A stretch of DNA of 64,000 nt, from the IMG/VR virus record IMGVR_UViG_2859810971_000007. One strand, 5' to 3'. Source of the DNA: a virus. Its lineage: Duplodnaviria > Heunggongvirae > Uroviricota > Caudoviricetes. The notes beneath the pieces are model-generated. The model saw only the letters and a list, made by a program, of their open reading frames with translations, did not search any database and was not told the DNA's origin. Shown here piece after piece: positions 472 through 55,473 of the stretch (position 1 is its first letter; every line of letters starts with the position of its first letter). The position numbers were made by a program, and so were the translations under genes.

Positions 472-830
472 TCGCCTCATTCTGGCATTATTCTGTGGGG
501 CAGGACTGCCCCGCCTTAACCGGATATAACAGCATCCCCCGTCATCCGGAGTAATACGATCCACAAAGAAAGAATCATCCCCGATAGTTAACGTATCCTG
601 ACGGCGTAACTGCGATATATCTGCCGTTTTCACAAACAGGCACGGTGAGGAATCCTCAAGCCGGATCCCCCGGCAACAAAAGAAATACTTTCGGGATCAT
701 CAAAAACCCCTGTCAGGTGTGTCCCCTCAAGTTCTCCGGACGTAATGACGGCGCTGATCCCCATATCACGGAGAATGACTTCATTGACACCGGCAAGCGC
801 AGCATCAAACAGATTATCGAAACCGTCCAC
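452..830 (-). pseudogene. FII: Head-tail joining protein FII-like, frameshifted
   Basis: N-term MDGFDNLFDAALAG.. (ORF 630..830) and C-term LFVKTADISQLRRQDTLTIGDDSFFVDRITPDDGG in another frame; shift falls in C5 run 667-671. Confidence 0.55.
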
Positions 831-841
831 GACATCTCCTG

Positions 842-1228
842 TTACTGCCTTTTTGCCAGACCACCTGCCGCCATGCTGGCAGCCACCTCAGCAGAAACAC
901 GAAACGACGTTCCCGGTGAAACAAATATCACTGAACCATTACATTTTGTATGCAGTGTCGCCAATGCCACCACCGTAACCTGCCCCGTTTCGTCTCCGGT
1001 AACAATGCCTGGCTGTTCAGGAACTGACTCGCCTTTATGCGCGGTCGGATCATCTTTCGATGGTGAGTACGTATCCGGCTCTGCGACCTCCCCCGCATCT
1101 CCAAGCTCTTCCTCCAGTTCCGCCACTCGCTGCGCAATATCTGCCGCACTACCGGAGACATCCGGTTCACGCCCCAGCCTCTCAGCCAGCTCACAAAGAC
1201 GTTTCAGGTTTTCTTCTTTCGTAGCCAT
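842..1228 (-). CDS. FI: DNA packaging protein FI
   Basis: MATKEENLKRLCELAERLG... ...VTVVALATLHT..PGTSFRVSA resembles lambda gpFI; AGGAG RBS upstream of ATG at 1228. Confidence 0.7.
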   Translation of the reverse strand: MATKEENLKRLCELAERLGREPDVSGSAADIAQRVAELEEELGDAGEVAEPDTYSPSKDDPTAHKGESVPEQPGIVTGDETGQVTVVALATLHTKCNGSVIFVSPGTSFRVSAEVAASMAAGGLAKRQ

Positions 1229-1279
1229 ACCCGCTCCTGATTGAATGAAAAACGGGAGCATTTAGCTCCCGCTCACGGA

Positions 1280-2308
1280 TTATTTCACCTGCACCACCAC
1301 AAACTCATCCGGATCCGGCAGCACCATCAGCGGCGCGGACTGCGTCATGGTGAATTCACGCGCCGGATCACCCACGGTCAGCCAGTGTTTCGGATAACGG
1401 GAAGACGCCACCACGCCTTCAGACAATGCCTGCGCATCCTGAATGGCACCGTAGCAACGAATACCCTCTGCGGCCGTATTTCCCAGTACCAGTGTGCCGT
1501 CCGGCAGATAACGTTTTTCGGTACCGTCCTCTGCCACATAGGACGTTTTTGCCACCACGATTGCCAGATCACCATAATACCCTTTGAAGGACACCACCGC
1601 CCCCAGGTCTTTCACTGCCGTTTCCAGCTGTGAATTTGAGCCACGACGGGTATCCAGTTTTTCGCGGAACAGCTTAAAGCCATTCAGCAGACGCCAGACC
1701 TTACCATCCATAATGGCAATATTGATGGTGCCGGAAGCAAAATCACAGTACGCATCCAGATCATGCGTCGGATCAAAGGTATCGCGGTCCTGAGCGCTCC
1801 ACTCCGTCCCTCCTGCCTGCGTAATGTTATTTCCCACCGACCGGCCAAAATCGACCTCAACAGTTTCAAACTGCTCTCCTTCCATGGTGTATTTGCCATA
1901 CAGCACGGCATTCACCGCCTGCATCTCTTCCACCTGGACAATGGCGTGCTCTTCCTGTTTGAGGTTATCGGTGATGATACGCAGGCGACGGTAAGCCGGG
2001 TCGTTCAGCTGGGCCGGATCTTCACCGGGAAGACGATCCACCGCCTGCTGGTAATTAAATTCGTGTTTCGGCTTAACGTAGCCCGGGCGCAGTACACGAG
2101 TTTCACCGCCACGGTGACGCAACACCTTTCCTTCAACAACCGGGGAGACATAGGCCGCCACCGGCGTTTTTCCGGTAATTTTGTCCAGCATTACCTCTTC
2201 GGTATGGAAATTCACCGTACGGCGGAAAAACAGCTCCAGAAACAGCGCACGAAATTTAACTTTTTGTTCGGTATAACCGAGTAACTGGCGGGTCGTAAAC
2301 AATCCCAT
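1280..2308 (-). CDS. E: Major capsid protein E
   Basis: 342 aa; near-colinear with lambda gpE (LFLELFFRR..., KDLGAVVSFKGYYGDLAIVV, TVGDPAREFTMTQSAPLM). Confidence 0.85.
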   Translation of the reverse strand: MGLFTTRQLLGYTEQKVKFRALFLELFFRRTVNFHTEEVMLDKITGKTPVAAYVSPVVEGKVLRHRGGETRVLRPGYVKPKHEFNYQQAVDRLPGEDPAQLNDPAYRRLRIITDNLKQEEHAIVQVEEMQAVNAVLYGKYTMEGEQFETVEVDFGRSVGNNITQAGGTEWSAQDRDTFDPTHDLDAYCDFASGTINIAIMDGKVWRLLNGFKLFREKLDTRRGSNSQLETAVKDLGAVVSFKGYYGDLAIVVAKTSYVAEDGTEKRYLPDGTLVLGNTAAEGIRCYGAIQDAQALSEGVVASSRYPKHWLTVGDPAREFTMTQSAPLMVLPDPDEFVVVQVK

Positions 2309-2365
2309 AAATCAGTTCCTTTCATTCAGAAATCAGTCAGGCTACCGCAGTGACCTGATAAAATG

Positions 2366-2713
2366 TTACGGCAGCGCTGCGTGACTCAGGGCACTGCCGG
2401 CAAAGGCATTCGCCTTTTTGTGTGTATCCACTCTCTCAGGCCAGTGGATGGCCTCCATCGCAAAGGTCCCCGACTTGTAATACGTCAGCACCGTCTCTGT
2501 ACCTTCAAGCGGCAGTACCAGTATGCCAACCACATGGCCTGCCTTCTGTCCGTCCCAGACCACCAGTTTCCCGGTATCCTCATCCAGCATCAGGGGCGTC
2601 AGAGCCGGTGTTGCCGAGGAAATCCCGCAGCTGCCTGTGGCGGTATGGGCCGGATCATTACCGGCAAAAATACGTACTTCCGCACGCTGTTCAGTGATGG
2701 TTTTCGTTACCAT
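2366..2713 (-). CDS. D: Head decoration protein D
   Basis: 115 aa; NDPAHTATG...TPLMLDEDTGKLVVWDG...YYKSGTF matches lambda gpD. Confidence 0.8.
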   Translation of the reverse strand: MVTKTITEQRAEVRIFAGNDPAHTATGSCGISSATPALTPLMLDEDTGKLVVWDGQKAGHVVGILVLPLEGTETVLTYYKSGTFAMEAIHWPERVDTHKKANAFAGSALSHAALP

Positions 2714-2749
2714 ATTGTAAAAACCTCATATTGATGGTCAGCACTGACT

Positions 2750-4255
2750 TCATGGCATGGCCATGAGCATTTTCACGTCCGCATCACCGTCTGCTGACGT
2801 CTGTGGCACGCCACCCTGTACCGCTGCCGGTGAATGGTTCGCCATGAAATGTTCAAACATGGCGGTTGTGGATGCAGAAACCGGTTCTGCCCTGCCTGAG
2901 GCTGCCGCCAGTACAGCCCGGGCATTCTCCACGGTCATCCCCGGACAGGCCGCCAGTTTTTCAGCCTGCGCCTCTGCCCCTTTTGCCTCATCCAGGGCCA
3001 TAATCTGATCACGAAGTGAGGGTCCGGCATTCGCCTGCGGTGAAGCAGCCAGAATCGGACGGGCTTTTTCCACCGTCATCTCCGGCATCGCCGCCAGCGT
3101 TGCCGCCAGTTGTTCACGTCCTTTCGCCTCTTCACATGCCATAATGCGATCGGCTTCACTCTGCGCAGATACACCAGATTGTTGCGGTGCCGCCACGGCC
3201 AGAATCGCCCGGGCCTGCTCAACGCTCATACCCTGTTGCCCTGCCAGCATCGTGGCCAGTTGTTCACGTCCTTTCGCTTCCTGACACGTCAGGATCCCCA
3301 TCACTCGCTGGTTCTCCTGCGCGGCAGCCTCCGTTGCAGTTAATTGCGGCATAGTGCCTCCTGTATCGTGTGTGTTCAGCGTCGCAGCCATCACGCTGAT
3401 GGCGTCCGACGCATTGATTAATTCATCCGCCAGTTCGGCCTCAATACCGGACTGACCTTCAAAAACGGCGGCCTCTGTTCCCATAACCGCATCCACAGAT
3501 AAACCGGTATACATCGCCACTTTTTCAGCAAACATCCGGCGCGCCGCATCAATGCGCTGCTGCATGTCCTGGCGAACCTTTGCTGGCAGGGATTCAAACT
3601 GATTGCCATCCACCTTGTGCGATCCGGCGTAAATCAGCGTGATATCCACACCGGCCTGTGCCAGATGACCGGCATAGCTGACATGGCCCATCATCACCCC
3701 AATGGAGCCGATACGGGATGTCTGGGTAACCAGCCGTCGGGAGCAGGCCGATGCCAGTAACATGGCGGCTGAACAGGCCGTGTCATTGCACAGTGCCCAG
3801 ACAGGCTTCAGCTGCCGGAGACGGTAAATCATGTCAGCGCAGTCAAACGCGCCGGTGGCCTGCCCGCCAGGACTGTCAATGTCCAGCAGTACGCCCCGTA
3901 CCTGAGTGTCCGCCATTGCCTGCTGAAGACAGGCGACAATGCCGTCATAGCCAGTCATTCCGGAAAATGGCCGCATGCCACCCAGCCGGTGTACCAGCGT
4001 GCCGGTCACCGGCAGTACAGCAATACCGTTCACCACCCGGTAAACACGGGCAGGTCGTTTGCCTCCGGCCATGTACTCGTCCGTTTCAGCCAGCATCCCG
4101 GGAGCGTCAAGCTGTACCAGCTGTTGCGGTACCGAAAGGCTTGCTGCGCCCATCTCACGCCCGAGCGCGCAAAAGAAAACCCGCGCATAGGCGGGCTCCA
4201 GAAGCAGCGGCTCATTGAATGCCGCAGCGATAATATGTGAAAGATTACGTCTCAC
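2750..4255 (-). CDS. C: Head maturation protease C (S49/ClpP-like) with Nu3-type scaffold repeats
   Basis: 501 aa; S49 peptidase-like core (VLLDIDSPGG) followed by repeated QEAKGREQLA / EEAKGREQLA / DEAKGAEAQA scaffold motifs. Confidence 0.75.
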   Translation of the reverse strand: MRRNLSHIIAAAFNEPLLLEPAYARVFFCALGREMGAASLSVPQQLVQLDAPGMLAETDEYMAGGKRPARVYRVVNGIAVLPVTGTLVHRLGGMRPFSGMTGYDGIVACLQQAMADTQVRGVLLDIDSPGGQATGAFDCADMIYRLRQLKPVWALCNDTACSAAMLLASACSRRLVTQTSRIGSIGVMMGHVSYAGHLAQAGVDITLIYAGSHKVDGNQFESLPAKVRQDMQQRIDAARRMFAEKVAMYTGLSVDAVMGTEAAVFEGQSGIEAELADELINASDAISVMAATLNTHDTGGTMPQLTATEAAAQENQRVMGILTCQEAKGREQLATMLAGQQGMSVEQARAILAVAAPQQSGVSAQSEADRIMACEEAKGREQLAATLAAMPEMTVEKARPILAASPQANAGPSLRDQIMALDEAKGAEAQAEKLAACPGMTVENARAVLAAASGRAEPVSASTTAMFEHFMANHSPAAVQGGVPQTSADGDADVKMLMAMP

Positions 4256-4310
4256 GTGATGTTGTCTCCTCTTCCGGCCTGCGACTCTCCGCTATCTGCT
4301 GCTGATACGC

Positions 4311-5838
4311 CTAGGCTATCCACACCGGACGTGAGAGTCCGGCTTTTTCGCGCTCTGCGGATTCCCTGACCTGCTGGCGGAAAATGTCCTGATAATCTTC
4401 GCCCATCAGTGCCAGTTCTTTCTCATACGTGCTCAGTCCGGCCTCAATGCGCATCACCGATTCCTGGACCTCCTTGAGCCCGTCAATGGCCATTCTTCCG
4501 GAGCCAATCCACTCTGCCCGTGACCAGGCTGAACGCGCCTGGTAAAAATCAAAACGCGCCCGTGGCGGACGAATAATCCCCCGAAGAAGCGCCTCTTCCA
4601 GCCAGCAGGAAAACATCTGCGTGGCCAGCCGGGCCGCAATAAATTTTCGCCGCCCCATAAAATAGCGCCACGACTCATTGGCGGAGGCGCGGGCACTTGA
4701 GTAACTGACCTTCGAGTAATCACGGGACAACTGTTCGTAGGAAACGCCAAGACCGGCTGCAATATACCGCAGCAGCGCCTGTTCAAGCGCCGAAAATCCA
4801 TTGTCTGAATCCTGCGCTGTCTGCAGGTTCAGCGCATCGCCAGGAAAAAAGGTGCGGAATTTTAACACCGCCCAGCGTCACGTTATTCGTGTCATACCAG
4901 CGGGTGAACTTCTCCAGAATATTAATAAGCGGATTATCCTGCTGACCTTGCGGTGCCCCCGCGATATATTCAAATGCCTTTTCGGTATCAAGTTCACTTT
5001 CGATTGTGGCTGCATACATCGCCTTCACAATGGCCGACTGAAGCTGCGTGGCCTGCAGGGAGTCCAGCATCTTCATCCGCTCCATTACGCTGTAAAACTG
5101 ATTAGCCCCACGGGTCTGCCCGTCCTCCACCGGCTCAAAAATATGCAGCATGGCCGGACGCCCGGTGGGAAGCTCACGCGGGATCCGCTCCCAGCGTCCG
5201 GCACCAGAGAACGGAAAATCATCCTCACAGATATGGTACGCAATCGCCCGCCCATACCGATCGACCTCAACCCCGGCCCGCAGAAAGTGGTTCCCCATAC
5301 CGTGTCCTGGCGTGTCCACCCGTTTCGGACTCACGGCTTTAAAACGCGTACGGAATAACTGCGTGGTTTCCGTATCCCAGACCGGCTGCACAAAGATTTC
5401 GCCGTTAAAGGCATGCACGCCCACCCCTTCACGGATAAATTCCGTAAACGTGCGTTTCCCTTCCACGTCGATCTCGCCAAACATTCCTTCTGCGTATTCC
5501 GACCAGGCTGCTTCCACCTCCCCGACAAAACTTTTTGCCGTGGTCTCCCGCATCCCCAGCCAACGCCAGTTCAGACGGTAGCTGATAAGAAACATGTGCC
5601 CGACGATATGATCCTTATGCAGGGCCACCGCATTAGCCGCGATACCGTTATTGCGCACCAGATCATCTGCCCGGGCATTCCCCAGACGCAATGCAGGCAA
5701 CAGGGCCGCATCGGCACTCTGCGCCGGTGGTAACCACTCTGCCATTTGCCCGCCAAATCCTGCGCCGCCTCCGTTGTAGCCGAGACTCTCACGAAGCGGA
5801 ACGCCGTTCACATCAATCAGGACAGGCGTTCGTTTCAT
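4311..5838 (-). pseudogene. B: Portal protein B, frameshifted
   Basis: N-part (ORF 4783..5838) and C-part (ORF 4311..4868) both align to lambda gpB; frames join if one base is removed from the A6 run at 4845-4850. Confidence 0.75.
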
Positions 5839-6038
5839 AACCTCACTCCCAGCGGTCGGCGGCGTCGGGTCGTACCCAGAACCGACTCCGCATCGTTGAT
5901 CGCACGGTTAAGCTCATTCAGGGACGCTGCCGTATATTCGATCCTGCGACCGTCTTTCTGTACCAACACAACCCGTTTACCGGTTAATAAATCAAGGCGC
6001 GCCTGACGCAGCGCCTGCAGTTCAGCGACTGTAACCAT
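5835..6038 (-). CDS. W: Head-tail connector protein W
   Basis: 67 aa; ELQALRQARLDLLTGKRVV.VQKDGRRIEYTA matches lambda gpW; lies between A and B. Confidence 0.7.
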   Translation of the reverse strand: MVTVAELQALRQARLDLLTGKRVVLVQKDGRRIEYTAASLNELNRAINDAESVLGTTRRRRPLGVRL

Positions 6039-7950
6039 TCACTCCTCCGGACAGCTTCGCTGCCAGTTCTTCAAGGGTCGGTTGTTCAGTTGCATCCTTG
6101 CGGGATGCCGCCAGCACAGCCAGATCAAGTTGCCAGCGTTGCACGGACACACGTAATGCCGCATAGGCATACACCAGGCAGTCCAGCGCTTCGTTACGCC
6201 GCTTTTTGTTATCCCACAACAGACGCATCTTTCCTTTTTCCCACTTTTCCACCAGTTCCTCCGCCACCAGTTGTTGTGCCTCTGTCTGCGAAAAAGTCTC
6301 CGGATTATCAGGAAAGCGGATGGCATACGATGTGGCCTCATTCACAGGGGTGGGATCGGCCTTCATTCGGGCATAGAGAATTTCTTTTGCGGTATCCGTC
6401 CCCACCTCACACAGATACACACCCCGCTGATTGCGGGTTTTCGGCATGGTGATCACCGGCTTGCCATAGACAGAGGCACCTTTTACCGGCAGTACCCGGA
6501 AAACACCGTGTTTTTTTGACCTCTGATACACGATTTCGCCATCGATCCCCCCGATATCCCAGCAGACACGGGAAATGGTCATTTCGGTACCGTCTGCATG
6601 GCGGTATTTTTTATTGATCGCCGCATCCACACGTAACAGCGTCTCTTCCTCATCAGGACGTCCCATGATGATGATTTTATCCACCAGAAAGGCTTCCTCT
6701 CCCGGAGCCCACCCCCAGACATACATCTCAAAACGGTTTCGCTGCGAGTCAATGCCCGCCGTCAGATAAACCACCCGGACAGGCACCGTTGCCGTGTAAG
6801 GCACAACCTTATCCATCAGTACCTGGTGATCGAGTTTTTCGCCCACGGCCTCTTCCCAGGTCTCGCCCAGCGTGGTGTTCACAAAAGTTTTCACGCCGTT
6901 GGGATCTTTCAGTGCATCCAGCCAGTCACAGACTATCTGTACCCAGGTGGTGAACGGACTGTACGCCGTCCATATATGGAAAGTGATGGAGCGCGGCGGC
7001 GGAATTTCATTACCCGAAGCACTGAAAAACGTCAGACCGTCACGCGTCCACATCCCGGTATTGTCACAAATCCAGCGCCCCCCGGTCTGATCAAGTTCAG
7101 ACTGACGGATCACGCAGCCATTATGTTCACACAGGTAATACACCGTTTCCGGTTTACCCTTCTCCCATTTCAGGCCAAACGACGTCGCATCATCGCCAAA
7201 CTTCAGATACTGCTCCTCCCCGCAATGAGGGCAAGGGACATAAAACCGCATGAAATGCGCAGATTCATTCGCAGCTTTTTCAATCTGACAGGAGCCTTTA
7301 ATTTTTGGCGTTGAACCGCGTATGGATTTTGGCCATACCGAACCTTCAATACGTTTATCGCCAAGCAGTGTTGGCGAACCTTCTTTTTCCACATCCGGTT
7401 CAAACGAGGAGAGTTCGTCATAGCAGACCACATCGACAGATTTTTCACGGTAGTTTTTGGCAGCAGCACCACCCAAACACCAGAACCCCACACCAGAGGA
7501 AAAACGCTTCAGTGTGAGCGTATTATCCCGGTGTTTCCGGCCCAGCCAGGGAGAAAGTTTTTTCAGGCAAGGAACATCACGAATTGTTGCTTCCACGTGA
7601 GACTTCATAAAATCTTCAGCAGCTGAGTCCGTCGGCTGAAAAAGAAGAGTGTTGCGGGATTTGTGCTCAATAAAATACCCGATCACACCAAGCACCATTT
7701 TTGTATAACCAACACGGGCAGATTTAATCAGGTTAACTGTACGAATCTCGTCATTGCCCATGCAGTTCATGATGGCGACCTGAAACGGCAGCGTTTTCCA
7801 TTCCCCCTCACCGTATGACGATTCTTTAGGCAGGTAATAATTTTGATCGGCCCATTCTACAGCCGTCACCGGCAATACCCTGACCAGTGGCTGCAGTGCG
7901 ATAGTGACTGCCACCATCATATTACTCAGTTGTTGTTCTGATATATTCAT
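6022..7950 (-). CDS. A: Terminase large subunit A
   Basis: Colinear with lambda gpA (TAVEWADQNYYLPKESSYGEGEWKTLPFQ...); start taken at MNISEQQ (ATG 7950); longer ORF start at 8007 also possible. Confidence 0.85.
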   Translation of the reverse strand: MNISEQQLSNMMVAVTIALQPLVRVLPVTAVEWADQNYYLPKESSYGEGEWKTLPFQVAIMNCMGNDEIRTVNLIKSARVGYTKMVLGVIGYFIEHKSRNTLLFQPTDSAAEDFMKSHVEATIRDVPCLKKLSPWLGRKHRDNTLTLKRFSSGVGFWCLGGAAAKNYREKSVDVVCYDELSSFEPDVEKEGSPTLLGDKRIEGSVWPKSIRGSTPKIKGSCQIEKAANESAHFMRFYVPCPHCGEEQYLKFGDDATSFGLKWEKGKPETVYYLCEHNGCVIRQSELDQTGGRWICDNTGMWTRDGLTFFSASGNEIPPPRSITFHIWTAYSPFTTWVQIVCDWLDALKDPNGVKTFVNTTLGETWEEAVGEKLDHQVLMDKVVPYTATVPVRVVYLTAGIDSQRNRFEMYVWGWAPGEEAFLVDKIIIMGRPDEEETLLRVDAAINKKYRHADGTEMTISRVCWDIGGIDGEIVYQRSKKHGVFRVLPVKGASVYGKPVITMPKTRNQRGVYLCEVGTDTAKEILYARMKADPTPVNEATSYAIRFPDNPETFSQTEAQQLVAEELVEKWEKGKMRLLWDNKKRRNEALDCLVYAYAALRVSVQRWQLDLAVLAASRKDATEQPTLEELAAKLSGGVNGYSR

Positions 7951-8229
7951 CGAGTAAATCCGGTAATTTATCCCCCGCACGCGCGCACTGATTCGCTCCC
8001 TTAGCAATAAGGATTTTCAGATGATCAATATGACGCGGCGTTAAATCCGGGAACTGTCGTTGCATGGACAAAGGAATGGAGTCAAGCGTACTGGATAAAG
8101 CCATCGCCAGCTTACTAAGGGCAAAAATACAAAATCCGGTATCGATAAGATTTCCTTTTGACACCTGATTTTTTAACTGCTGTGCGACAGCCTGTTCTGC
8201 GGTCAGTTCCCATCTGGCAATGAGTAGTT
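7922..8229 (-). pseudogene. nu1: Terminase small subunit Nu1, C-terminal fragment truncated by IS600
   Basis: Translation ...GFCIFALSKLAMALSSTLDSIPLSMQRQFPDLTPRHIDHLK matches lambda Nu1 C-terminus; N-terminal part replaced by IS600 end at 8230. Confidence 0.6.
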
Positions 8230-8271
8230 TGAGGTGTACTGGCAATAGCGGACACTACCATTTGTTCTTTT

Positions 8272-9090
8272 TTAAGCAGCCATCTGATGATATTTTTCCC
8301 TGAAGGCTGCCGGGGAGATATTCCCCAGACGAGAGTGACGACGCTGACGATTGTAGAAAATCTCAATGTATTCCCGTATTACTGAGATGGCTTCATCCCG
8401 GTTATTAAAACGATAGTGGCTCAGGCTCTCATTTTTCAGCGTTCCCCAGAAGCTTTCCATCGGAGCATTGTCGTAACAGTTACCTTTACGCGACATTGAT
8501 GTTTTCAGACCAAACTGCTCCTGTATGACCCGGTAATCGTATGCGCAGTACTGTGAACCTCGATCAGAGTGGTGGATTAGCCCGGCAGGTGGGCGCTGGC
8601 TCCTGAGCGCCATAAACAGGGCTTTACCTGTCAGCTCTTTTGTCATGCGCTCTCCCATGGCGTAGCCGACAATTTCGCACGTATAAACATCTTTGATGCC
8701 AGCGAGGTACAACCATCCCTCCTGTGTGGCAACATACGTCAGGTCCGCCACCCAGACCTGATTTGGTGCTGTAGGAGCGAACGTCTGGTTCAGCAGATTT
8801 GGCGCAACTGGCAGATTGTGGTTCGGGTTCGTAGTCGCTCTGAACTTGCGTTTCTGCTTACAGCGTAGCCTCAGCTCCTTACGAAGACGTGCCAGTCGGT
8901 CACGACCAACGATGATGCCATTCTCTGCCAGCTCCGTCTGGAGCCGCCGGGTTCCATATGTTTCGCGAGTGCGGATATGTGCCACCTTAATCTCCAGTTT
9001 TAGCCGCTCATCACTTTGTTTTCTGTCTGAGGGTTCATGCTGTACCCAGTTGTAATAACCGCTCCTGGATACACCAAATACCTGACACAT
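8272..9090 (-). CDS. IS600 OrfB transposase (DDE)
   Basis: 272-aa ORF near-identical in all five copies; IS3-family integrase-core motifs. Confidence 0.9.
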   Translation of the reverse strand: MCQVFGVSRSGYYNWVQHEPSDRKQSDERLKLEIKVAHIRTRETYGTRRLQTELAENGIIVGRDRLARLRKELRLRCKQKRKFRATTNPNHNLPVAPNLLNQTFAPTAPNQVWVADLTYVATQEGWLYLAGIKDVYTCEIVGYAMGERMTKELTGKALFMALRSQRPPAGLIHHSDRGSQYCAYDYRVIQEQFGLKTSMSRKGNCYDNAPMESFWGTLKNESLSHYRFNNRDEAISVIREYIEIFYNRQRRHSRLGNISPAAFREKYHQMAA

Positions 9091-9366
9091 CGCTTCAATG
9101 GGAAATTGTTGTCGCCATTGTTCGATTAACGCGTATTTTTCAGCGACTCCTGTGCAAAATACGCTGTTGCTTTTTTTAATATATCGCGCTCAAGGCGAGC
9201 TTCATTTAACGCCTTACGCAGTTGCAGAATTTCAGATTCCAGTTCAGCCACCGTGCGGGAACCAGGAGTACCGAGCCCTTTTCTGGCGGCGGTAACCCAT
9301 TGTCCTAAAGTGTGAACCGCCCCGGGAATCCTGGAGACTAAACTTCCTGAGAAAGAGGTAAACAGG

Positions 9367-9689
9367 ATGACTAAAAATACTCGTTTTTCCCCCGAAGTCC
9401 GTCAACGGGCAGTCCGTATGGTTCTGGAAAGTCAGGGCGAATATGACTCACAATGGGCGACAATTTGTTCCATTGCCCCAAAGATTGGCTGTACGCCGGA
9501 GACTCTGCGTGTCTGGGTTCGCCAGCATGAGCGGGATACCGGGGGCGGTGATGGAGGGCTCACCACCGCTGAACGTCAGCGCCTGAAAGAGCTGGAGCGT
9601 GAAAATCGTGAACTGCGCCGCAGTAACAATATCCTTCGCCAGGCTTCCGCTTATTTTGCGAAGGCGGAGTTCGACCGCCTCTGGAAAAA

Positions 9690-10881: not shown

Positions 10882-11567
10882 CTGATACATATCCCGCCCC
10901 CCGACAGACCTGTGCTATCGGAAAGAAAAAAGGCCATCAGCAAAACTCTGATGGCCTGAATCACCTTTACCAATATTGTATGAAAAAACACGCACGACTA
11001 ATTGACAATAATTTTCATTTCCATTAAAAAAGATCGCGCAGCATTCTTAATTCATGAGGAACTTTACCCGCCAGCAATCTGAGTAGCGAAAGCTGTTCAT
11101 CCCAATGTTTTTGCTGGCGGGTCCTTTTTTCTACGGTCCTCCTCCCCGGAGGGGCATTTCATTATTTTTCTAATCGTTACTGGTGAGAAGGCGGAAGAAA
11201 AAGCCAGTTCTTCGCCCCTAAATAATAGCATGATTCCAGTCCATGCAAAATCTGATTTCCAGCTCACACATACCGAGCACTGTACAAAAAACCGCCAACC
11301 AAGGCAGTTAAGAGTGTGTTCCCGGGGTTTGCTTAGAATATTTTGTAAGTTGTCCGAAGAGATATTTACAACACCAGAATGATGCATTATCAGTCCCCTG
11401 CCAGAGGTTCACTACGTAACCTGACCGACAATGCACCATTCTGGTGCTGAAAAAAGAGCACTGGAACTGCAACAAAACAACATCACAGAACAGGAGATGG
11501 TAAGGAGTCAGACATTCCCACACAATATTGTGTCAGTGCAAATAACAACCTTCGTCTCAAATCTCGC

Positions 11568-11642
<75 letters not shown>

Positions 11643-11645
11643 ATA

Positions 11646-11720
<75 letters not shown>

Positions 11721-16150: not shown

Positions 16151-16897
16151 CTACTTAACAACCCTCGAATGGCTAACATTCGGACGCCAGCTCTCCCAGT
16201 TAAAATTCACCCAGCGCCCGCCGTTCATGACCATGCGATCCATCACCCGCTCGCCGAGCAATGTTTTCATCACCTCATAGTTCAGGTTTGTCAGCATCCC
16301 CACGCTACGCATCGACGCTGTCCGGCGATCAACAATCTGGTGCAGCACCACCTGCTCGTTTTTCGTCTCGCGCTGAATGCCAATTTCATCAAGAACCAGC
16401 AGATCCACTTCGCACAGCTCCCGCAAAAATTTTTCGCCTGACTGCCCGTCGTCATAGCTGGCGTGCAGGGCGCTCATAACATCAGCCACGGTAACCACAA
16501 TCACTGTCTGACCGTCTTTCAGCAGGCGATTCCCGATAGCTGCCGCTAAGTGATTCTACCCGGTATCAGGTTTTCCGCTGAACGCAAAATTTGTACACCC
16601 GGTCATCAGTTCATCGGCGATGGATTTCGCCTGGCTTAACGCGTATCGCTGGCCGTCGTTCTGCACCTGGTAATTCGCAAACGAGCATTTACGGTGCAAC
16701 GGCTGGATGCCTGAGCGATTCAGAATTTTTTCCACCCGCAACTGGCGATTCAGGCGGTTGATCTCCTCGCTACGTTTCTGGCCTTCAGCAAGTTGCCACT
16801 CGCGCCACTCCGCTACCGTTCTGAATGGGGCGGTTACATGTGGCGGGGTCAGTCGGCGGATGCGTTCCAGAACGCCGCCTGTCGCAATATTTTTCAT
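16151..16897 (-). pseudogene. DnaC-like helicase loader with in-frame amber codon
   Basis: Colinear with E. coli DnaC; single frame reads FSGKPDTG-TAG-NHLAAAI; TAG at 16556-16558 sits where the Walker A lysine is expected. Confidence 0.7.
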
Positions 16898-16903
16898 GGT
16901 CCG

Positions 16904-17674
16904 TTACCCCCTGAAGCCTGGCGGGATCGCACTGTCCGGCAACGAGACGGTGTTAACCTGTCGGAGCAACGTCTCAGGCCGAACACCTTTCGGCGCGAAC
17001 AGGCCCTGGTATTCATTGGCGATGCTGTGTCGAATCACCTGCTCAGGTGTAAAACCCTGCTGACGGAATTTTTCCAGTTCCCGTATCGCCCTGCTCCGTT
17101 CGAATCGGTTTTCGCAATGCCTGTCTGAACCGGACCCACTCATGCCAGAGTGTTTCCGGCAACCAATCGGGCAGCTCAATAGCCTCCGGCTCGAATTTTT
17201 TAGACGCTCGTTTTTGGCGAGGGGATTTAGGGGGAGATCAGTATTTAGATCTTCCTCTTCCACTGGTAACGCTTTTTGATCCGTTTGTGTAACGCTGGCA
17301 GCGTTACCTTTTCGTTTCAGTTCGCGTATTTTTGTTACTCGCTCGTTTGTAACCGCCCGTTTTTTAGAGCTTTTTCCGTTATGACGTTCAAAGTTAGGTA
17401 GAGAAAGCCCACCGTCATTTTCGACCAGCCATCCAACCTGAATTAACGTATCAGCAAAACCAGACATAAAAGTGATGCGATCTATTGCACTTTTTGTAAC
17501 GCCGCGAGCGTTACAATCTGCATTACCGTCTATCATTTGTTGATCCGCCCATGCCCAGAAGCGAATAACCTTCCCTAATGCGGCATCTGGATCAATATTC
17601 AGAATCTCAGCAAGCCTGAATATTTCCGGCTTATCCGGCGTAATAACCTCGAGCTTTATCCAGTTTGAAGCCAT
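16904..17674 (-). CDS. Replication initiation protein (O-like / YdaU-like)
   Basis: 256 aa directly upstream of the DnaC-like gene; contains GTAACGC-N5-GCGTTAC palindromes in its 5' part. Confidence 0.45.
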   Translation of the reverse strand: MASNWIKLEVITPDKPEIFRLAEILNIDPDAALGKVIRFWAWADQQMIDGNADCNARGVTKSAIDRITFMSGFADTLIQVGWLVENDGGLSLPNFERHNGKSSKKRAVTNERVTKIRELKRKGNAASVTQTDQKALPVEEEDLNTDLPLNPLAKNERLKNSSRRLLSCPIGCRKHSGMSGSGSDRHCENRFERSRAIRELEKFRQQGFTPEQVIRHSIANEYQGLFAPKGVRPETLLRQVNTVSLPDSAIPPGFRG

Positions 17675-46041: not shown

Positions 46042-46363
46042 TATTCAGCAGGTTCTTGAGCGCTGGGGCGCGTGGGTGGCTAATAATCATGAGGATGTGA
46101 CCTGGTCGTCCATTGCTGCCGGTTTTAAGGGATTAATCCCTTCAAAAGTAAAATCCCGCCCGCAATGCTGTGACGATGACGCGATGGTTATATGTGGGTG
46201 TATGGCCCGCCTTAACCGGAACAACAACGATCTACATGACTTGCTGGTTGACTACTACGTGTTTGGGATGACATTCATGACGCTGGCGCGGAAGCATGGA
46301 TGCTCAGATGGTTATATAGGAAAGAAGCTACAAAAAGCCGAGGGGTGGTGGAAGGAATGTTGA
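46034..46363 (+). CDS. quuD: Late-gene antiterminator Q (QuuD/phage-82 type)
   Basis: From [26 protein letters not shown]...[17 protein letters not shown], close to DLP12 QuuD as recalled; followed by terminator and late genes. Confidence 0.7.
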
Positions 46364-47434: not shown

Positions 47435-48028
47435 ATGAAGCATGAAGAAATGAATCAGCGATTCAATCACCTGGAAAATGAAATCACTGAGCTTAATAAA
47501 AAATTGTCGGCGTTGGTGAGTTCTGAAGATGAAAACAAACGCCGCGATGAGCATTATGCGGCGATTTACGATTACTGCCACAAAGTCGCTCACGAGACTT
47601 TTATGAAGTTTTTGCAGGAAAAGTTTTTACCGGCCGCATTGTCAGAAAAAGAGGCGGCTTACCTGCGGCCTGAGTACGTCATTACGGTTAACAGTGCCGG
47701 AGAGGAAGAGCATAAAAGTGATTTTATTGCGTCTGCACCGGATAAAGACCAGGAACCCCATCGGCCTTTCAGGGTTTCCTGTGAAGAGGGTGAGTTCGTC
47801 GTTTATGAGAACGGAAAACCTGTCCGGGCATCGCATCATCACTGCCTGAAAATTATTAATCTCGCTATCAGATGCCTGAAAGACGAAAACACCAGAGTTA
47901 TGAAACGCATTGGCCGTTGCATGGGGTATTTGCAGGTGGCGGCAGAGATTGAAGCACTTGCCAGTGGTGCAGACATGGATGCTGCGGTGCGGGAGGCTCT
48001 TCTTCGTGATTTCAATACTCCCCTTTAA
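47435..48028 (+). CDS. Hypothetical protein between holin and endolysin
   Basis: 197-aa ORF starting 4 bp after holin stop; no family recognised. Confidence 0.4.
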   Translation: MKHEEMNQRFNHLENEITELNKKLSALVSSEDENKRRDEHYAAIYDYCHKVAHETFMKFLQEKFLPAALSEKEAAYLRPEYVITVNSAGEEEHKSDFIASAPDKDQEPHRPFRVSCEEGEFVVYENGKPVRASHHHCLKIINLAIRCLKDENTRVMKRIGRCMGYLQVAAEIEALASGADMDAAVREALLRDFNTPL

Positions 48029-48128: not shown

Positions 48129-48653
48129 ATGAGCGCAAAAATCAAATACGGCCTGTCGGCTGCTGTTCTGGCGCTGATTGCCGCAGGCGCGTCTGCTCCC
48201 CAGATACTTGACCAGTTTCTGAACGAAAAAGAGGGTAATCACACAACGGCATACCGTGATGGTTCTGGCATATGGACCATCTGTCGTGGTGCCACAATGG
48301 TGGATGGTAAGCCTGTCATACCGGGAATGAAGCTGTCGAAGGAAAAATGTGACCAGGTTAACGCTATTGAACGTGATAAGGCGCTGGCATGGGTGGAGCG
48401 CAATATTAAAGTACCTCTGACCGAACCCCAGAAAGCGGGTATAGCGTCATTTTGCCCCTATAACATTGGCCCCGGTAAGTGTTTCCCGTCGACGTTTTAT
48501 AAGCGGCTGAATGCCGGTGATCGTAAGGGCGCATGCGAGGCGATTCGCTGGTGGATAAAAGATGTTGGGCGCGATTGCCGCATACGTTCAAATAACTGCT
48601 ATGGACAGGTTATTCGTCGTGACCAGGAAAGCGCATTAGCCTGTTGGGGATAG
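48129..48653 (+). CDS. Endolysin (lysozyme family with N-terminal signal-anchor)
   Basis: 174 aa; hydrophobic N-terminus then lysozyme-like core ([21 protein letters not shown]). Confidence 0.75.
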
Positions 48654-48657
48654 ATCA

Positions 48658-49266
48658 ATGAGCAGAGTCACCGCGATTATCTCCGCTCTGGTTATCTGCA
48701 TCATCGTCTGCCTGTCATGGGCTGTTAATCATTACCGTGATAACGCCATTACCTACAAAGAGCAGCGCGACAAAAACGCAAGAGAACTGAAGCTGGCGAA
48801 CGCAACCATTACTGACATGCAGCAGCGCCAGCGTGATGCTGATGCACTCGATGCTAAATACACGAAGGAGTTAGCTGATGCGAAAGCTGAAAATGATGCT
48901 CTTCGGCGCAAGCTTGATAATGGTGGTCGGGTGCTCGTCAAAGGAAAATGCCCTGTGCCATCCTCAGCCGAAACCTCCAGCGCCTCCGGCATGGGCAATG
49001 ATGCCACCGTCGAACTCTCTCCAGTTGCTGGACGAAACGTTCTCGGTATCCGGGACGGAATCATCAGCGACCAGACAGCATTGAGAATGCTTCAGGAGTA
49101 CATCAGGATCCAATGCCTTGGGGGTAGCGGTAATTTTACTCATTATCCTTCAAATCAGATTCTGTTGTCAGAGGAATGGGGGAAGCTGGATTCGCAAGAG
49201 CTTTTTATGGGCAGTTTAGCTAAAAAAAGGCAACACGAAGCTAAAACTACCAACATAAAGTGCTGA
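48658..49266 (+). CDS. Rz i-spanin, apparently C-terminally extended
   Basis: N-terminal TM plus coiled coil typical of Rz; ORF runs about 45 codons past the expected end and overlaps the convergent gene. Confidence 0.6.
48878..49084 (+). CDS. Rz1 o-spanin lipoprotein embedded in Rz
   Basis: 68 aa in +1 frame inside Rz; lipobox VVGCSS; proline-rich. Confidence 0.6.
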
Positions 49267-49728: not shown

Positions 49729-49921
49729 TGTCTTTCCTTCTGTGAATTTTTCTTTGCTATTTAACCGTGATACGACTTAATTTAGGCTTAAACACCTTAC
49801 ATTTACAAGATACTCCTGTGGGGGCCCTGCCACGGAGAGTCGCAGGAGTGAGTGATGAGGAAGAATTAAAGCAACCTATTGTGACAGGCAGCGATAACAG
49901 TAAATCACAGGAAGCATAATC

Positions 49922-50685
49922 ATGGCAAAACCGGACTGGGAGGCCATCGAATCGGCATACCGGGCCGGAGTCCTTAGCCTCCGTGATATAGGCGAGAAAT
50001 ACAGCGTTACAGAAGGGGCTATCAGGAAGAGGGCCAAAAAGCTTGATTGGGCACGCAGTGGCGGTACGCAGGTTTGCAAAAATGGTACGCAAAAAAGGAA
50101 AGTGCGTACCAGCAGAAAGCCTGCCATTACTGGCCTTACACAAAAAAGTACGCAAATAAAAACAGAATCTACACCGGATACGAAACCGATACGCGGAATG
50201 CGTACCGATCCCCGACTAACCCATTCCAACCCGGTAACCAGCAGGCATTAAAACACGGTGGTTATGCCCGTCGCCTTCTGCTCAAAGATGAGGTGATAGA
50301 GGACGCTAAAGCGTTGACGCTCGAGGACGAATTATTTCGCCTTCGTGCTAACAACCTTGTCGCTGCAGAGAATATTGGTCGGTGGTTGGTGTCGCTGGAA
50401 GATGCTAATGGGGACCAGGAAAGGAAGATGCTGATTGAAAATATCAGCGCCGCCGAGAAAGCAATGATGCGCAATACAGTTCGTATTGAGTCCATCGTTG
50501 GCACGCTTGCGACGGTAGGAAAAATATTTGCTGATACAGCCTACCGCAAGGCCGCCACTGATAAGGTGTCTCTGGAGGCTGATCGTCTTCGCCGTGATGC
50601 AGGTATTGATGATGGCAATGGAGAGCGTGACCTCAATGACTTCTACTCTGACATCCAAACCGACGCTGAATCCGGCTTTACGTAG
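49922..50685 (+). pseudogene. Terminase small subunit, frameshifted
   Basis: HTH N-terminus in ORF 49922..50251, C-terminal domain (TNPFQPGNQQALKHGG...) in ORF 50047..50685; join lies in A-rich repeats 50090-50160. Confidence 0.5.
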
Positions 50686-51394
50686 TTTCTGGACTATGCG
50701 GGCACGTAACAAAGTGCTTTATGGTGGTCGGTCATCGTCAAAATCATGGGATGCCGCTGGCATTGCCATATTTCTGTCGAATAAATACACCCTGCGTTTT
50801 TGTTGTGCCCGTCAGATCCAGAATAAAATCGAAGAGTCGGTGTATACCCTGCTCAAAATTCAGATAGACAGGTTTGGTCTGCGGCACCGTTTCCGTATTC
50901 TGAACAACAAAATCATTAACCGGGTTACTGGCTCGGAATTTGTTTTTTATGGATTATGGCGCAACATCGAAGAAATTAAGTCACTGGAGGGGATCGATGT
51001 GTTGTGGCTGGAAGAAGCCCACGCACTGACGGAATACCAGTGGAAAATTCTGGAGCCAACGATCCGTAAAGAGGGTTCGGAATGCTGGTTCATATTCAAC
51101 CCCGGACTTGTTACTGATTTCGTCTGGCGCAACTTCGTTGTTGATCCGCCCGAAGGCACTCTCATCCGCAAAATTAACTATGACGAAAATCCGTTTCTGT
51201 CTGACACCATGCTTAAGGTTATCGACGCGGCGCGACGCCGTGATCCGGATGGTTTTAAACATGTGTATGAGGGCGTTCCGGAGTCTGATGATGATGCGGC
51301 AATTAGACTGGCCCCCTGAATCTCCAGACAACCAGTATCACTTAAATAAGTGATAGTCTTAATACTAGTTTTTAGACTAGTCATTGGAGAACAG

Positions 51395-51826
51395 ATGATT
51401 GATGTCTTAGGGCCGGAGAAACGCAGACGGCGTACCACACAGGAAAAGATCGCAATTGTTCAGCAGAGCTTTGAACCGGGGATGACGGTCTCCCTCGTTG
51501 CCCGGCAACATGGTGTAGCAGCCAGCCAGTTATTTCTCTGGCGTAAGCAATACCAGGAAGGAAGTCTTACTGCTGTGGCCGCCGGAGAACAGGTTGTTCC
51601 TGCCTCTGAACTTGCTGCCGCCATGAAGCAGATTAAAGAACTCCAGCGCCTGCTCGGCAAGAAAACGATGGAAAATGAACTCCTCAAAGAAGCCGTTGAA
51701 TATGGACGGGCAAAAAAGTGGATAGCGCACGCGCCCTTATTGCCCGGGATGGGGAGTAAGCTTAGTCAGCCGTTGTCTCCGGGTGTCGCGTGCGCAGTTG
51801 CACGTCATTCTCAGACGAACCGATGA
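51395..51826 (+). CDS. insC: IS2 InsC, altered C-terminus
   Basis: Reads ..[17 protein letters not shown].. instead of ..LLPGDGE-stop because of the G3 run at 51746-51748. Confidence 0.6.
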
Positions 51827-52622
51827 CTGGATGGATGGCCGCCGCAGTCGTCACACTGATGATACGGATGTGCTTCTCCGTATACACCATGTTATCGGAG
51901 AGCTGCCCACGTATGGTTATCGTCGGGTATGGGCGCTGCTTCGCAGACAGGCAGAACTTGATGGTATGCCTGCGATCAATGCCAAACGTGTTTACCGGCT
52001 CATGCGCCAGAATGCGCTGTTGCTTGAGCGAAAACCTGCTGTACCGCCATCGAAACGGGCACATACAGGCAGAGTGGCCGTGAAAGAAAGCAATCAGCGA
52101 TGGTGCTCTGACGGGTTCGAGTTCTGCTGTGATAACGGAGAGAGACTGCGTGTCACGTTCGCGCTGGACTGCTGTGATCGTGAGGCACTGCACTGGGCGG
52201 TGACTACCGGCGGCTTCAACAGTGAAACAGTACAGGACGTCATGCTGGGAGCGGTGGAACGCCGCTTCGGCAACGATCTTCCGTCGTCTCCAGTGGAGTG
52301 GCTGACGGATAATGGTTCATGCTACCGGGCTAATGAAACACGCCAGTTCGCCCGGATGTTGGGACTTGAACCGAAGAACACGGCGGTGCGGAGTCCGGAG
52401 AGTAACGGAATAGCAGAGAGCTTCGTGAAAACGATAAAGCGTGACTACATCAGTATCATGCCCAAACCAGACGGGTTAACGGCAGCAAAGAACCTTGCAG
52501 AGGCGTTCGAGCATTATAACGAATGGCATCCGCATAGTGCGCTGGGTTATCGCTCGCCACGGGAATATCTGCGGCAGCGGGCTTGTAATGGGTTAAGTGA
52601 TAACAGATGTCTGGAAATATAG
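51783..52622 (+). pseudogene. insD: IS2 InsD, N-terminally truncated
   Basis: InsD frame is closed by a stop upstream of 51783 as a result of the same 1-nt difference. Confidence 0.6.
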
Positions 52623-53373
52623 GGGCAAATCCAGCAATCATCAAACTGTCTTGGATAGAAGCCGCAGTGGATGCGCACAAAACGTTAAATTTCGAACCCA
52701 GTGGAAGAAAGCGTATTGGCTTTGACGTGGCTGACAGTGGTACAGATAAGTGCGCTAACGTTTACCGTCACGGATCCGTTGTTTTCTGGGCCGACGAATG
52801 GAAGGCCAAAGAAGATGAATTACTGAAGAGCTGCCAGCGTACTTATCAGGCGGCGCTGGAGCGTGAAGCAGATATTGTTTACGACTCTATCGGTGTTGGT
52901 GCGTCTGCCGGTGCTAAATTCTCTGAAATTAACGCTGACCGGAAGAGCGAGAACGCATACGCGCGACGTGTGAATTACCAGAGGTTTAACGCCGGTGCTG
53001 GTGTGCATGAGCCAGATGACGAGTACAACGGCATCCCCAACAAAGACTTTTTCGCAAATCTTAAGGCTCAGGCATGGTGGCTGGTGGCTGACCGTTTCAG
53101 AAATACGTTTAACGCCATTAACAACGGAGAACAGTATCCTGTGGATGAGCTGATCAGCATAGATTCTCGTTGTCCGTTGCTTGAAAAGCTGAAACTGGAA
53201 CTGACAACACCTCATCGTGATTTCGACCGTAACGGACGTGTGATGGTCGAAAGTAAAAAAGACCTCGCAAAACGCGAGATACCGTCACCAAACGTTGCTG
53301 ATGCATTCATTATGGCCTTCGCGCCAATCGATACATCGCTGGATATCTGGGAACAGCTGGGGAGACAGGCCTG

Positions 53374-54840
53374 ATGGCACGAAACAAACAAGCCCTGCGG
53401 CGAACTGTGCAGGCCACAGCTGATGGTTATGAGAATTTTATTGCCCGAGTAGGGATGCAGACACCTAACCAGCACTCAGCATCCACCTACCGGGCTAATT
53501 TCACCAGTCGTAACCGCATGCTGGTGGAATGGTCCTATCGTTCATCCTGGATCATCGGCGAAGCAGTCGATGCTATCCCGGATGATATGACCCGCAAAGG
53601 CATTCGCATCACTTCGGAAATTGATGCAAAAGATCGTGGCATTCTCGAATCACAACTGGATGAGTTGCAAATCTGGGATGCGCTGAATGACGTGCTGAAA
53701 TGGTCGCGCCTCTACGGCGGCGCGGTGGGTTTCATCATGATTGAGGGGCAGGCACCAATGACCCCGCTGCGACCCGAAACCATCGGTAAGGGCAAGTTTA
53801 AGGGGATTCTCCCGCTCGACCGCTGGATGGTCGACCCGGCACTGACCCGCCGCATTAAAGATATGGGGCCGGACCTGGGTAAACCTGAGTTTTACGATGT
53901 GGTGACCACAGCAACGGGAATTCCTGCCTGGCGCATTCATCACAGTCGCCTGATTCGCTTTGATGGCGTCACGTTGCCATTTCAGCAGAAGATGACCGAG
54001 AACGAATGGGGAATGTCGGTTGTAGAGCGTATCTGGGATCGTCTTACCGCGTTCGACAGCGCTACTGTCGGCGCGGCGCAGCTGGTCTACAAGGCGCATT
54101 TGCGTACCTACAGCGTGGAGAAGCTACGCGAGCTTATCGCACTTGGTGGTCCTGCGTATGAAGCGTTGCTGAAGAATATCGACCTGATTCGACAGTTCCA
54201 GAGTAATGAAGGCATGACGCTCATGGACTCGCGGGATAAGTTTGAAACCCATCAGTACAGCTTCAGTGGTCTGGATGACATCCTTTCGCAGTTTGCAGAA
54301 CAGATTAGTGGCGCTGTTGGTATCCCACTGGTGCGGTTGTTCGGACAGTCCCCGAAAGGATTTTCTACCGGTGATGCAGACCTTGCCAACTATTACGATC
54401 GCATCAGTTCGTTGCAGGAGAGGCGTTTACGTCTTCCGGTGCGGCGGATACTGGACATCATGCATCGTTCGGAACTTGGCAAGCCGCTGCCGGACGATTT
54501 CACGTTTGAGTTTAACCCGCTCTGGCAAATGTCTGATGTCGATCGCTCAACGGTGGCGTTAAACACCACCAACGCAATCAGTACGGCGCTGGGTGATGGT
54601 CTGATGACACTGAAAGCCGCTATGACTGATTTGCGAGAAAATTCTGACGTAACCGGCATAGGGGCATCCATTACCAACGAGGACATCGAGAATGCCGAAG
54701 ATGAAGCGCCGCCCGGCATCGGCGAACCTGATGACGAACCGCAGGAGCCGTCAGGCGGAAATCCGGTATCGAACCAGCCTACGCAGGATAGCGAGGGCGG
54801 TCGGAGACATCGTAAATGGTCGCTACGATGGTTCAAATGA
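53374..54840 (+). CDS. Portal protein (Mu gp29 / DUF935-like)
   Basis: 488 aa directly after terminase large subunit (ATGA overlap); acidic C-terminus. Confidence 0.65.
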   Translation: MARNKQALRRTVQATADGYENFIARVGMQTPNQHSASTYRANFTSRNRMLVEWSYRSSWIIGEAVDAIPDDMTRKGIRITSEIDAKDRGILESQLDELQIWDALNDVLKWSRLYGGAVGFIMIEGQAPMTPLRPETIGKGKFKGILPLDRWMVDPALTRRIKDMGPDLGKPEFYDVVTTATGIPAWRIHHSRLIRFDGVTLPFQQKMTENEWGMSVVERIWDRLTAFDSATVGAAQLVYKAHLRTYSVEKLRELIALGGPAYEALLKNIDLIRQFQSNEGMTLMDSRDKFETHQYSFSGLDDILSQFAEQISGAVGIPLVRLFGQSPKGFSTGDADLANYYDRISSLQERRLRLPVRRILDIMHRSELGKPLPDDFTFEFNPLWQMSDVDRSTVALNTTNAISTALGDGLMTLKAAMTDLRENSDVTGIGASITNEDIENAEDEAPPGIGEPDDEPQEPSGGNPVSNQPTQDSEGGRRHRKWSLRWFK

Positions 54841-55473
54841 CAGTATCACGGAAATTATTGCGGCGCTGGAGCGTTACAGTGAAATCATCACCCCTGGGCG
54901 ACAAAGGTCGCGGAAAACTTTACTGCGGACCTAACCCGGCAGAACGAGAAAGTTTGGCGGCAACACAGCAAGAACATCAGTCGCGAGCTCCGCAATCTTG
55001 TGGAAAGCGCTCCTGTGGGCCAGGTGATGCAATCCATCATCGCCGAACAGGTCAAGTACATCAAATCTCTGCCTCTCGAGGCCGCAGACAGGGTGTACGA
55101 CATCCAGAACAAAGCGATAGAGGCTGTTGTCACCGGTGGTCGGGCGGAGCAGTTTGCTAAAGAGATTGCATCTACCGGCGATGTTGCTAAGTCTAGGGCC
55201 GATCTGATTGCCCGAACGGAACTGGGAAGAGCAACGGGCGCGCTGGATATGGCCCGAGCGATAGCTATTGGCTCGGATGGTTATATTTGGCGTACAGCCG
55301 ATGATGGCGATGTCCGAGATTCCCACGATCACATGAAAGGTAAATTCGTCCGCTGGGATTCACCTCCAACTTTGGACGGCATGACCGGCCACGCGGGCGA
55401 GCTGCCAAACTGCCGCTGCTATAAAGAGATCGTGTTTGTTCGCGTTCCATTCGCAATGAAAAGGGCAGCATAA
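54692..55473 (+). pseudogene. Head morphogenesis protein (Mu F-like), frameshifted
   Basis: C-part ORF 55000..55473 (..DGDVRDSHDHMKGKFVRWDSPP..); upstream part in another frame; frames join if one C is added to run 54891-54894; start uncertain. Confidence 0.5.

Follow-up and report, generated by a model that had tools for sequence, protein, structure and literature searches.

The question raised by the 64,000-nucleotide (nt) stretch of DNA analysed here (IMG/VR record IMGVR_UViG_2859810971_000007; referred to below as the window) is whether the single-base insertions and deletions (indels) that break several of its genes reflect genuine decay or errors of sequencing. A preliminary description of the window had mapped frameshifts to short homopolymers in the head-tail joining gene FII, the portal gene, ybhJ, an intein, copy B of the insertion sequence (IS) IS2 and a Mu F-like gene, and had left both readings standing. 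Both were found to apply, at different sites. A total of 18 single-base indels were found in the window, two of which are inherited and 16 of which are private to a single assembly, CP026810.1. Comparison with close genomes, which the preliminary description had proposed, was what separated the shared lesions (FII and portal) from the 16 single-assembly ones, including those in ybhJ, the intein, IS2 copy B and the Mu F-like gene. Taken together, two true inherited mutations and about sixteen consensus errors of a long-read-only assembly very probably account for what is seen.

The window corresponds to CP026810.1 (GCA_002949455.1; 4,531,304 bp), a Shigella flexneri-type chromosome with which it shows 100% identity over stretches of 7.1, 21.3 and 18.5 kb, and whose proteins are recorded under the name Shigella flexneri. 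It contains lambda-like head genes, a Rac-like remnant, ipaH and the pgl-ybhC segment of the chromosome. A second prophage contributes head genes of the Mu F-like, DUF2213 and Gp24 types, and the insertion sequences comprise five copies of IS600, two copies of IS2, and IS1. For the comparison, the exact truncated products and their "repaired" counterparts were looked up among approximately 15 billion proteins, and the encoding DNA was then fetched and aligned. A one-base length difference from intact relatives was present at all six sites listed above.

The FII lesion lies in a C5 run (positions 667 to 671, minus-strand gene; G5 on the coding strand) of a lambda-like head-tail joining gene, the remnant of which spans positions 454 to 830. 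In agreement with the run as first described, the ancestral C6 is found in intact relatives with 99.9% DNA identity, and the repaired 125-amino-acid protein is encoded on more than 1,000 contigs. The exact 66-amino-acid N-terminal fragment was found on 15 contigs, among them AKNF01000088.1 (S. flexneri 1235-66), two further complete genomes and several Logan short-read assemblies. FDAARGOS_943 has the same FII sequence as the window, annotated as "frameshifted," together with an intact portal gene.

Similarly, the A6 run noted in the lambda-like portal gene (positions 4845 to 4850; T6 on the coding strand; gene at 4246 to 5838, minus strand) is A5 in intact Escherichia coli relatives. The exact 351-amino-acid N-terminal fragment of the portal protein was present on 20 contigs, including CP026810.1, the draft contig LPTO01000133.1 and the Logan assemblies ERR216996, SRR11588744 and SRR34861790; the DNA of these contigs was 99.95 to 100% identical to the window and likewise showed A6. 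The same gene carries an amber codon (CAG to TAG, positions 4311 to 4313, minus strand) 22 codons ahead of the normal portal stop. At this site the alignment reads GCCCAGGCG in loci L001 and L002, versus GCCTAGGCG in the window and in loci L011 to L013. Since the closest relatives also have it, the amber codon is genuine. Within a CCAGG (Dcm) site, a classic hot spot of 5-methylcytosine deamination, the base changed is the inner C.

The distribution of these lesions is nested: FII is broken and the portal gene intact in SRR31555793 and FDAARGOS_943, while the closest relatives carry the FII frameshift, the portal frameshift and the amber codon. The lesions were therefore acquired at different times, because one run (SRR31555793) has FII broken and the portal gene intact. 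Because the exact truncated products recur in independent assemblies, short-read ones included, the FII and portal frameshifts are, on this comparative evidence, genuine inherited mutations. Ordinary replication slippage in dead prophage genes would account for both changes (C6 to C5 and A5 to A6), which would have become fixed in the lineage.

A further run of the portal gene, C5 at positions 4578 to 4582, varies among assemblies. Three assemblies that differ in sequence background, CP026846.1, CP026776.1 and Logan SRR11588744, have C4, and the window and six other assemblies have C5, a homoplasic change in length.

The other four frameshifts of the preliminary description belong to the private class. 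While ybhJ (remnant at 28396 to 30208, plus strand) is indeed one base short, the difference had been assigned to the wrong run: it affects not the A4 at positions 28453 to 28456 but the G run at positions 28449 to 28452, which is G4 in the window and G5 in all other S. flexneri examined. Five other complete S. flexneri genomes have G5 at this position and encode a 726-amino-acid YbhJ, and the broken 583-amino-acid product occurs only on the CP026810.1 chromosome. Positions 28446 to 28452 read GGCGGCGGC in E. coli, and a C-to-G substitution in S. flexneri converted them into GGCGGGGGC, creating the G5 run that is one base short in the window.

The intein frameshift, rightly located in a G3 run at positions 35669 to 35671, lies in a phage primase-helicase gene (34181 to 36772, plus strand). 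G4 was found at this site in three close genomes of E. coli or enteroinvasive E. coli, S. flexneri partial proteins read through it (...SLLGDGSL...), and the broken 505-amino-acid primase-helicase fragment is restricted to the CP026810.1 chromosome. The G3 run described in IS2 copy B (positions 51746 to 51748; element at 51304 to 52633, plus strand) is also real as a difference between the two copies: copy A has G4, copy B is 1,330 nt long versus 1,331 nt for copy A, and the IS2 element at the same locus has G4 in CP049606.1, AMKF01000016.1 and five other genomes. The short run is thus private at this locus. It sits 30 nt downstream of an intact A6G slippery site and would disrupt both OrfA and OrfAB.

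In the Mu F-like head morphogenesis gene (54731 to 55473, plus strand), a C4 run at positions 54891 to 54894 had correctly been singled out. All eight relatives that carry a lineage-specific 105-nt deletion in the DUF2213 gene have C5 at 54891. Among these eight, the seven that reach position 58101, where an intergenic C4 run (58101 to 58104, plus strand) lies downstream of the major capsid gene, all have C5 there as well, and five show 0 substitutions over 4.4 to 5.7 kb. A widespread frameshift in this gene was considered, as a 152-amino-acid Mu F fragment is present on more than 1,000 contigs, strain 301 included, and was rejected, since the DNA of such contigs (loci L020 and L024) has an intact C5. 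The intact 247-amino-acid gene is often called as 152 amino acids from an internal GTG start that avoids a 110-nt overlap with the portal gene, so that a comparison of protein lengths alone would have suggested, falsely, that the frameshift was widespread.

Twelve one-base deletions beyond those of the preliminary description were detected, at positions 10903, 11104, 11155, 11652, 17225, 46342, 48020, 48646, 49120, 49820, 50210 and 58101. Most of those in the second prophage fall on plus-strand coding sequence. A G4 run at 46342 to 46345 (G5 elsewhere) shortens the product of the antiterminator Q gene to 109 amino acids versus 126; a C4 run at 48020 to 48023 (C5 elsewhere) lies near the 3' end of a 209-amino-acid gene; a G4 run at 48646 to 48649 (G5 elsewhere) lies near the 3' end of the phage lysozyme gene; and a G5 run at 49120 to 49124 (G6 elsewhere) affects an Rz-like lysis gene. 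All four are private. The intergenic G5 run at 49820 to 49824 (plus strand; G6 elsewhere) is shared only with CP026765.1, an assembly of the same accession series.

The C4 run at 50210 to 50213 (C5 elsewhere), also private, interrupts a 254-amino-acid terS-like gene (49922 to 50685, plus strand) upstream of the terminase large subunit gene. The broken 109-amino-acid product was found only on the CP026810.1 chromosome, and the repaired 254-amino-acid protein, with the lineage-specific residues of the window itself, exists in a Logan assembly. The 2.3-kb contig that encodes it, from Logan ERR200328, shows 0 substitutions with respect to the window and yet has the longer run at 49120, 49820 and 50210 (C5 at the last). 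Where they cover positions 46342, 48020, 48646, 49120, 49820, 50210 and 51746, two of the eight relatives mentioned above and a further six genomes show the longer run, except for CP026765.1 at 49820. This is the sole exception over the whole private class, every other genome aligned at a private site having the longer run.

Outside the second prophage, a Rac-like replication gene (open reading frames [ORFs] at 16556 to 17674, minus strand) has a private G4 run at 17221 to 17224, where eight other S. flexneri genomes have G5; its broken 256-amino-acid product is again confined to the CP026810.1 chromosome. In a gene-poor prophage remnant (10897 to 11651), four one-base losses of G or C were recorded by comparison with two genomes only (loci L040 and L043), and are given with lower confidence: C6 versus C7 at 10897 to 10902, C3 versus C4 at 11101 to 11103, G4 versus G5 or G6 at 11151 to 11154, and C1 versus C2 at 11651. 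The Rac-like replication gene also contains a hexanucleotide repeat, TCTTCC on the plus strand, at about 17250 to 17262, which is present in 2 copies here and in 3, 4 or 5 copies in other S. flexneri; it represents an in-frame variable-number tandem repeat.

The spectrum of the private changes was one-sided. All 16 single-base indels are deletions, 15 of them in G/C runs with a true length of 4 to 7 and the remaining one the loss of a C from a CC pair. Nine G and seven C residues were lost from the plus strand, with no strand bias. Approximately 12 of the 59 G/C runs of 5 or more bases were contracted, versus 0 of the 285 A/T runs in the same size class (Fisher P = 2e-10), and homopolymers, proposed at the outset as the common denominator of the frameshifts, are therefore affected far above chance where they consist of G or C. 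The contractions are also clustered, involving 8 of 12 runs between 45.5 and 58.3 kb versus 4 of 47 elsewhere (P = 8e-5). Against the closest relatives (loci L048, L012 to L015, L054 and L019 to L024), 15.9 kb of comparison yielded 2 private substitutions and 5 private one-base deletions. Mismatch-repair-defective E. coli accumulates about 6 to 7 substitutions per small indel (PMC8510543), and the binomial probability of the 2:5 split given this ratio is approximately 9e-4. As a control, 11.3 kb of the ybhC-ipaH region was compared in five other complete S. flexneri genomes, and no private G/C-run deletions were detected.

Because they occur in one assembly only, are deletions only, fall in G/C runs and exceed the substitutions, the private changes are likely to be artefacts. 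Judging from comparison with other assemblies, we consider it most likely that they are consensus errors rather than very recent mutations. A long-read-only consensus would have under-called the length of short G/C homopolymers at approximately 16 sites, and their clustering would fit a locally poor consensus, as might arise, for example, where few reads map uniquely to a repeated prophage. The accessions neighbouring CP026810.1 are S. flexneri strains of the Centers for Disease Control and Prevention (CDC). We take the CP0267xx to CP0268xx Shigella series to be the PacBio set of CDC "historical strains" (Kim et al. 2018), and the platform of CP026810.1, on that assumption, to be PacBio RS II. 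Errors of this type have been documented in a finished PacBio RS II genome of Clostridium autoethanogenum, in which Illumina and Sanger sequencing revealed about 240 false one-base deletions, more than 90% of which fell in homopolymers of over 4 bases, with spurious frameshift annotations as a result (PMC4687164). For its part, Quiver was found to be weak at G runs, and G-run frameshifts were reported in Xanthomonas tal genes (PMC4853030). In the window, A/T runs of 6 to 7 were untouched, which argues against nanopore chemistry. Methylation-linked nanopore error was also considered, as positions 667, 4845, 50210, 54891 and 58101 adjoin GATC (Dam) or CCWGG (Dcm) sites, and was discarded, no consistent motif being present across the 16 private sites.

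Several observations weigh against under-calling. Genuine slippage yields the same change, and the FII lesion is itself a deletion from a C run. The short-read assembly SRR11588744 has C4 at 4582, versus C5 in the window, and C-run length polymorphism thus exists outside long-read data. The 143-amino-acid OrfA variant that the G3 run gives IS2 copy B (51395 to 51826) recurs in unrelated genomes (E. coli and S. flexneri 4c; 29 contigs), so that this G run, if not a site of repeated error in long-read assemblies, could be a hot spot of IS2 mutation. A private 34-nt duplication and a private IS1-associated deletion (see below) are atypical of consensus errors, and the strain would for this reason have some genuine private mutations. 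Three assemblies of the sister series showed no such contractions, two of them across 11.3 kb of the ybhC-ipaH region and the third across 5.8 kb of the Rac-like region. Finally, the sites at 10903 to 11652, 17225, 28449 and 35669 were compared without a near-identical relative, so that a real, lineage-specific mutation is harder to exclude there.

A defect running through the whole accession series was considered as well. In CP026776.1, a sister-series assembly, a G5-to-G4 change of its own splits the tape-measure gene (locus L046, at about 7195, outside the window), in a block with 0 substitutions with respect to the genome of the window. This change, together with the C5-to-C4 difference of the same assembly at 4582 and the G5 run of CP026765.1 at 49820, was suggestive but too thin to establish such a defect, which, given the three sister-series assemblies without contractions in the stretches compared, is not shown.

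The opposite extremes, in which all the indels share one origin, fare differently. That every one of them, FII and portal included, is an artefact of the CP026810.1 assembly is scarcely credible: although the FII lesion, like the private ones, removes a base from a G/C run, its C5 run and the A6 run of the portal gene occur in many independent assemblies, from short reads and from other projects, together with the shared nonsense substitution, and the idea is already refuted. That all are genuine, an old culture-collection strain having gathered slippage deletions in the G/C runs of neutral prophage DNA in the course of ordinary Shigella decay, is unlikely, if less remote than any other alternative considered. 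The five one-base deletions against only two substitutions in 15.9 kb run counter to neutral E. coli spectra, which strongly favour substitutions; the absence of affected A/T runs and of insertions, and the share of G/C runs of at least 5 bases hit within 64 kb, approximately 20%, point the same way. This proposal does draw on a region that is visibly decaying (the five IS600, two IS2 and IS1 elements, the IS-cut genes, the amber codon and the 81-nt and 105-nt deletions), on the proof from FII that real C-run deletions occur in the lineage, and on the other private changes that look real, namely, the 34-nt duplication and the IS1-associated deletion. However, the broken proteins are present in no other sequenced isolate, and no pattern of selection is visible, two of the sites being intergenic and several lying at gene ends.

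Real deletions might also have come from a strain defective in mismatch repair, or from a local burst of error-prone replication in the prophage at 46 to 58 kb. Homopolymers, 5-bp G:C runs included, are the indel hot spots of mismatch-repair-defective E. coli (PMC8510543), and the private deletions cluster in one prophage, but such an origin is very improbable, because mismatch-repair-defective lines show 6 to 7 substitutions per indel and the ratio is inverted here (P of about 9e-4). A mutator would moreover be expected to act genome-wide and not on one 12-kb block, would also hit A/T runs and would yield insertions; its expected spectrum was not seen, the window showing 2 substitutions versus 5 deletions, 0 of 285 A/T runs contracted and no insertions. 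To our knowledge, no mechanism deletes only from G/C runs of 4 to 6 bases in a single prophage. There is likewise only a slim chance that the sixteen private deletions are real and record a localized slippage burst in one cryptic prophage of one historical strain, for example through error-prone replication during abortive induction. If that were true, the burst would have left an indel-only, G/C-only signature that no known mutational process of E. coli produces. Under-calling by a long-read consensus, added to two inherited mutations, is thus the reading that we prefer.

Besides the two inherited frameshifts, the window carries other real lesions: the portal amber codon, the IS600, IS1 and IS2 insertions, and slippage deletions of 81 and 105 nt. 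The true 5' truncation of ybhJ is a deletion associated with the IS1 copy at 27626 to 28395 (plus strand), which took out ybhH and ybhI together with the 3' portion of ybhD and the initial 367 nt of ybhJ; the alignment to locus L004 skips from 2100 to 5788 across the element. The 167-amino-acid ORF immediately upstream (27877 to 28380), which had been taken for the N terminus of YbhJ, is the insB gene of IS1. Other complete S. flexneri genomes retain ybhH and ybhI, and the deletion seems, from this comparison, to be specific to the strain or to a narrow lineage. The repaired 593-amino-acid ybhJ product had no match among the approximately 15 billion proteins, and because of this absence the IS1 junction at ybhJ seems to be unique to the strain of CP026810.1. 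An 81-nt in-frame deletion in ybhJ, between 9-nt direct repeats (29736 to 29744), is present in all S. flexneri examined, and gives the 726-amino-acid product.

No frameshift was found in the gene for the terminase small subunit, nu1, in which a shift within A-rich repeats had been reported. The window at 7800 to 8230 aligns to an intact nu1 gene without gaps and with 100% identity (locus L001). The 3' two-thirds of the gene (7922 to 8230, minus strand) is thus unshifted and is cut at 8230 by an IS600 element (8229 to 9491). The 5' end of nu1 was looked for beyond this IS600 and was not found there.

Two length changes of another kind lie among the head genes of the second prophage. The Gp24-like cement gene has, at its 3' end, a private, non-homopolymer tandem duplication of 34 nt bounded by TGCTGAC microhomology (57028 to 57095, plus strand). 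The duplication alters the C terminus of the protein, yields a 161-amino-acid product found only on the CP026810.1 chromosome, and probably represents genuine slippage specific to the strain. The 105-nt in-frame deletion in the DUF2213 gene, with its junction at 14-nt direct repeats (56231 to 56244, plus strand), is genuine and lineage-wide; independent assemblies of one lineage encode its 371-amino-acid product on 24 or more contigs.

The intein interrupted by the private G3 run is 342 amino acids long and occupies residues 372 to 713 of the repaired primase-helicase, inserted in the Walker A loop (GVNGHGK|T). Its first residue is Ala (ACPLNEP...), it ends in ...VATHN, and the next residue is Thr; the frameshift falls exactly within its LAGLIDADG motif (SLLGDGSL). 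An IS3-family element further interrupts the primase-helicase gene, at 36773. Intein-less alleles of 626 amino acids exist in other E. coli prophages. The repaired 894-amino-acid primase-helicase had no match among the approximately 15 billion proteins, and a search for a close relative of the intein segment through the 35-amino-acid ORF upstream returned intein-less E. coli alleles only.

Neither under-calling at homopolymers nor pseudogenization of Shigella prophages is new, both being well known, and there is no new biology in their combination here; the value of the result lies in the quality control of pseudogene counts. Shigella is a textbook case of reductive evolution, and such counts are used to compare lineages. 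In this 64-kb window, nine genes or gene remnants are frameshifted by probable consensus errors versus two by real mutations, so that pseudogene tallies drawn from CP026810.1, and possibly from similar unpolished long-read records, would be inflated several-fold. The two classes can be sorted cheaply and without reads, by looking up the exact truncated and "repaired" products in public assemblies and then counting indels against substitutions with respect to the nearest relatives.

The private changes resemble the under-calling described for PacBio RS II assemblies built with HGAP and Quiver, in that only one-base deletions occur, in runs of about 4 to 8, far outnumbering substitutions, creating spurious pseudogenes and being absent from the short reads of relatives. 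They differ from such cases in that all but one fall in G/C runs and in that they are clustered in one prophage. The inherited changes, in turn, correspond to the pseudogenization of cryptic prophages in Shigella, with the FII and portal frameshifts, the amber codon, the IS600, IS1 and IS2 interruptions and the slippage deletions nested across isolates; however, only 2 of the 18 single-base indels of the window recur in independent isolates. In the case of IS2, the frameshift of the preliminary description lies in the overlap of orfA and orfB, where a change of frame is normal, as IS3-family elements use programmed -1 frameshifting. Unlike programmed frameshifting, the G4-to-G3 change is a difference in DNA between copies A and B, and the A6G motif upstream of it is intact.

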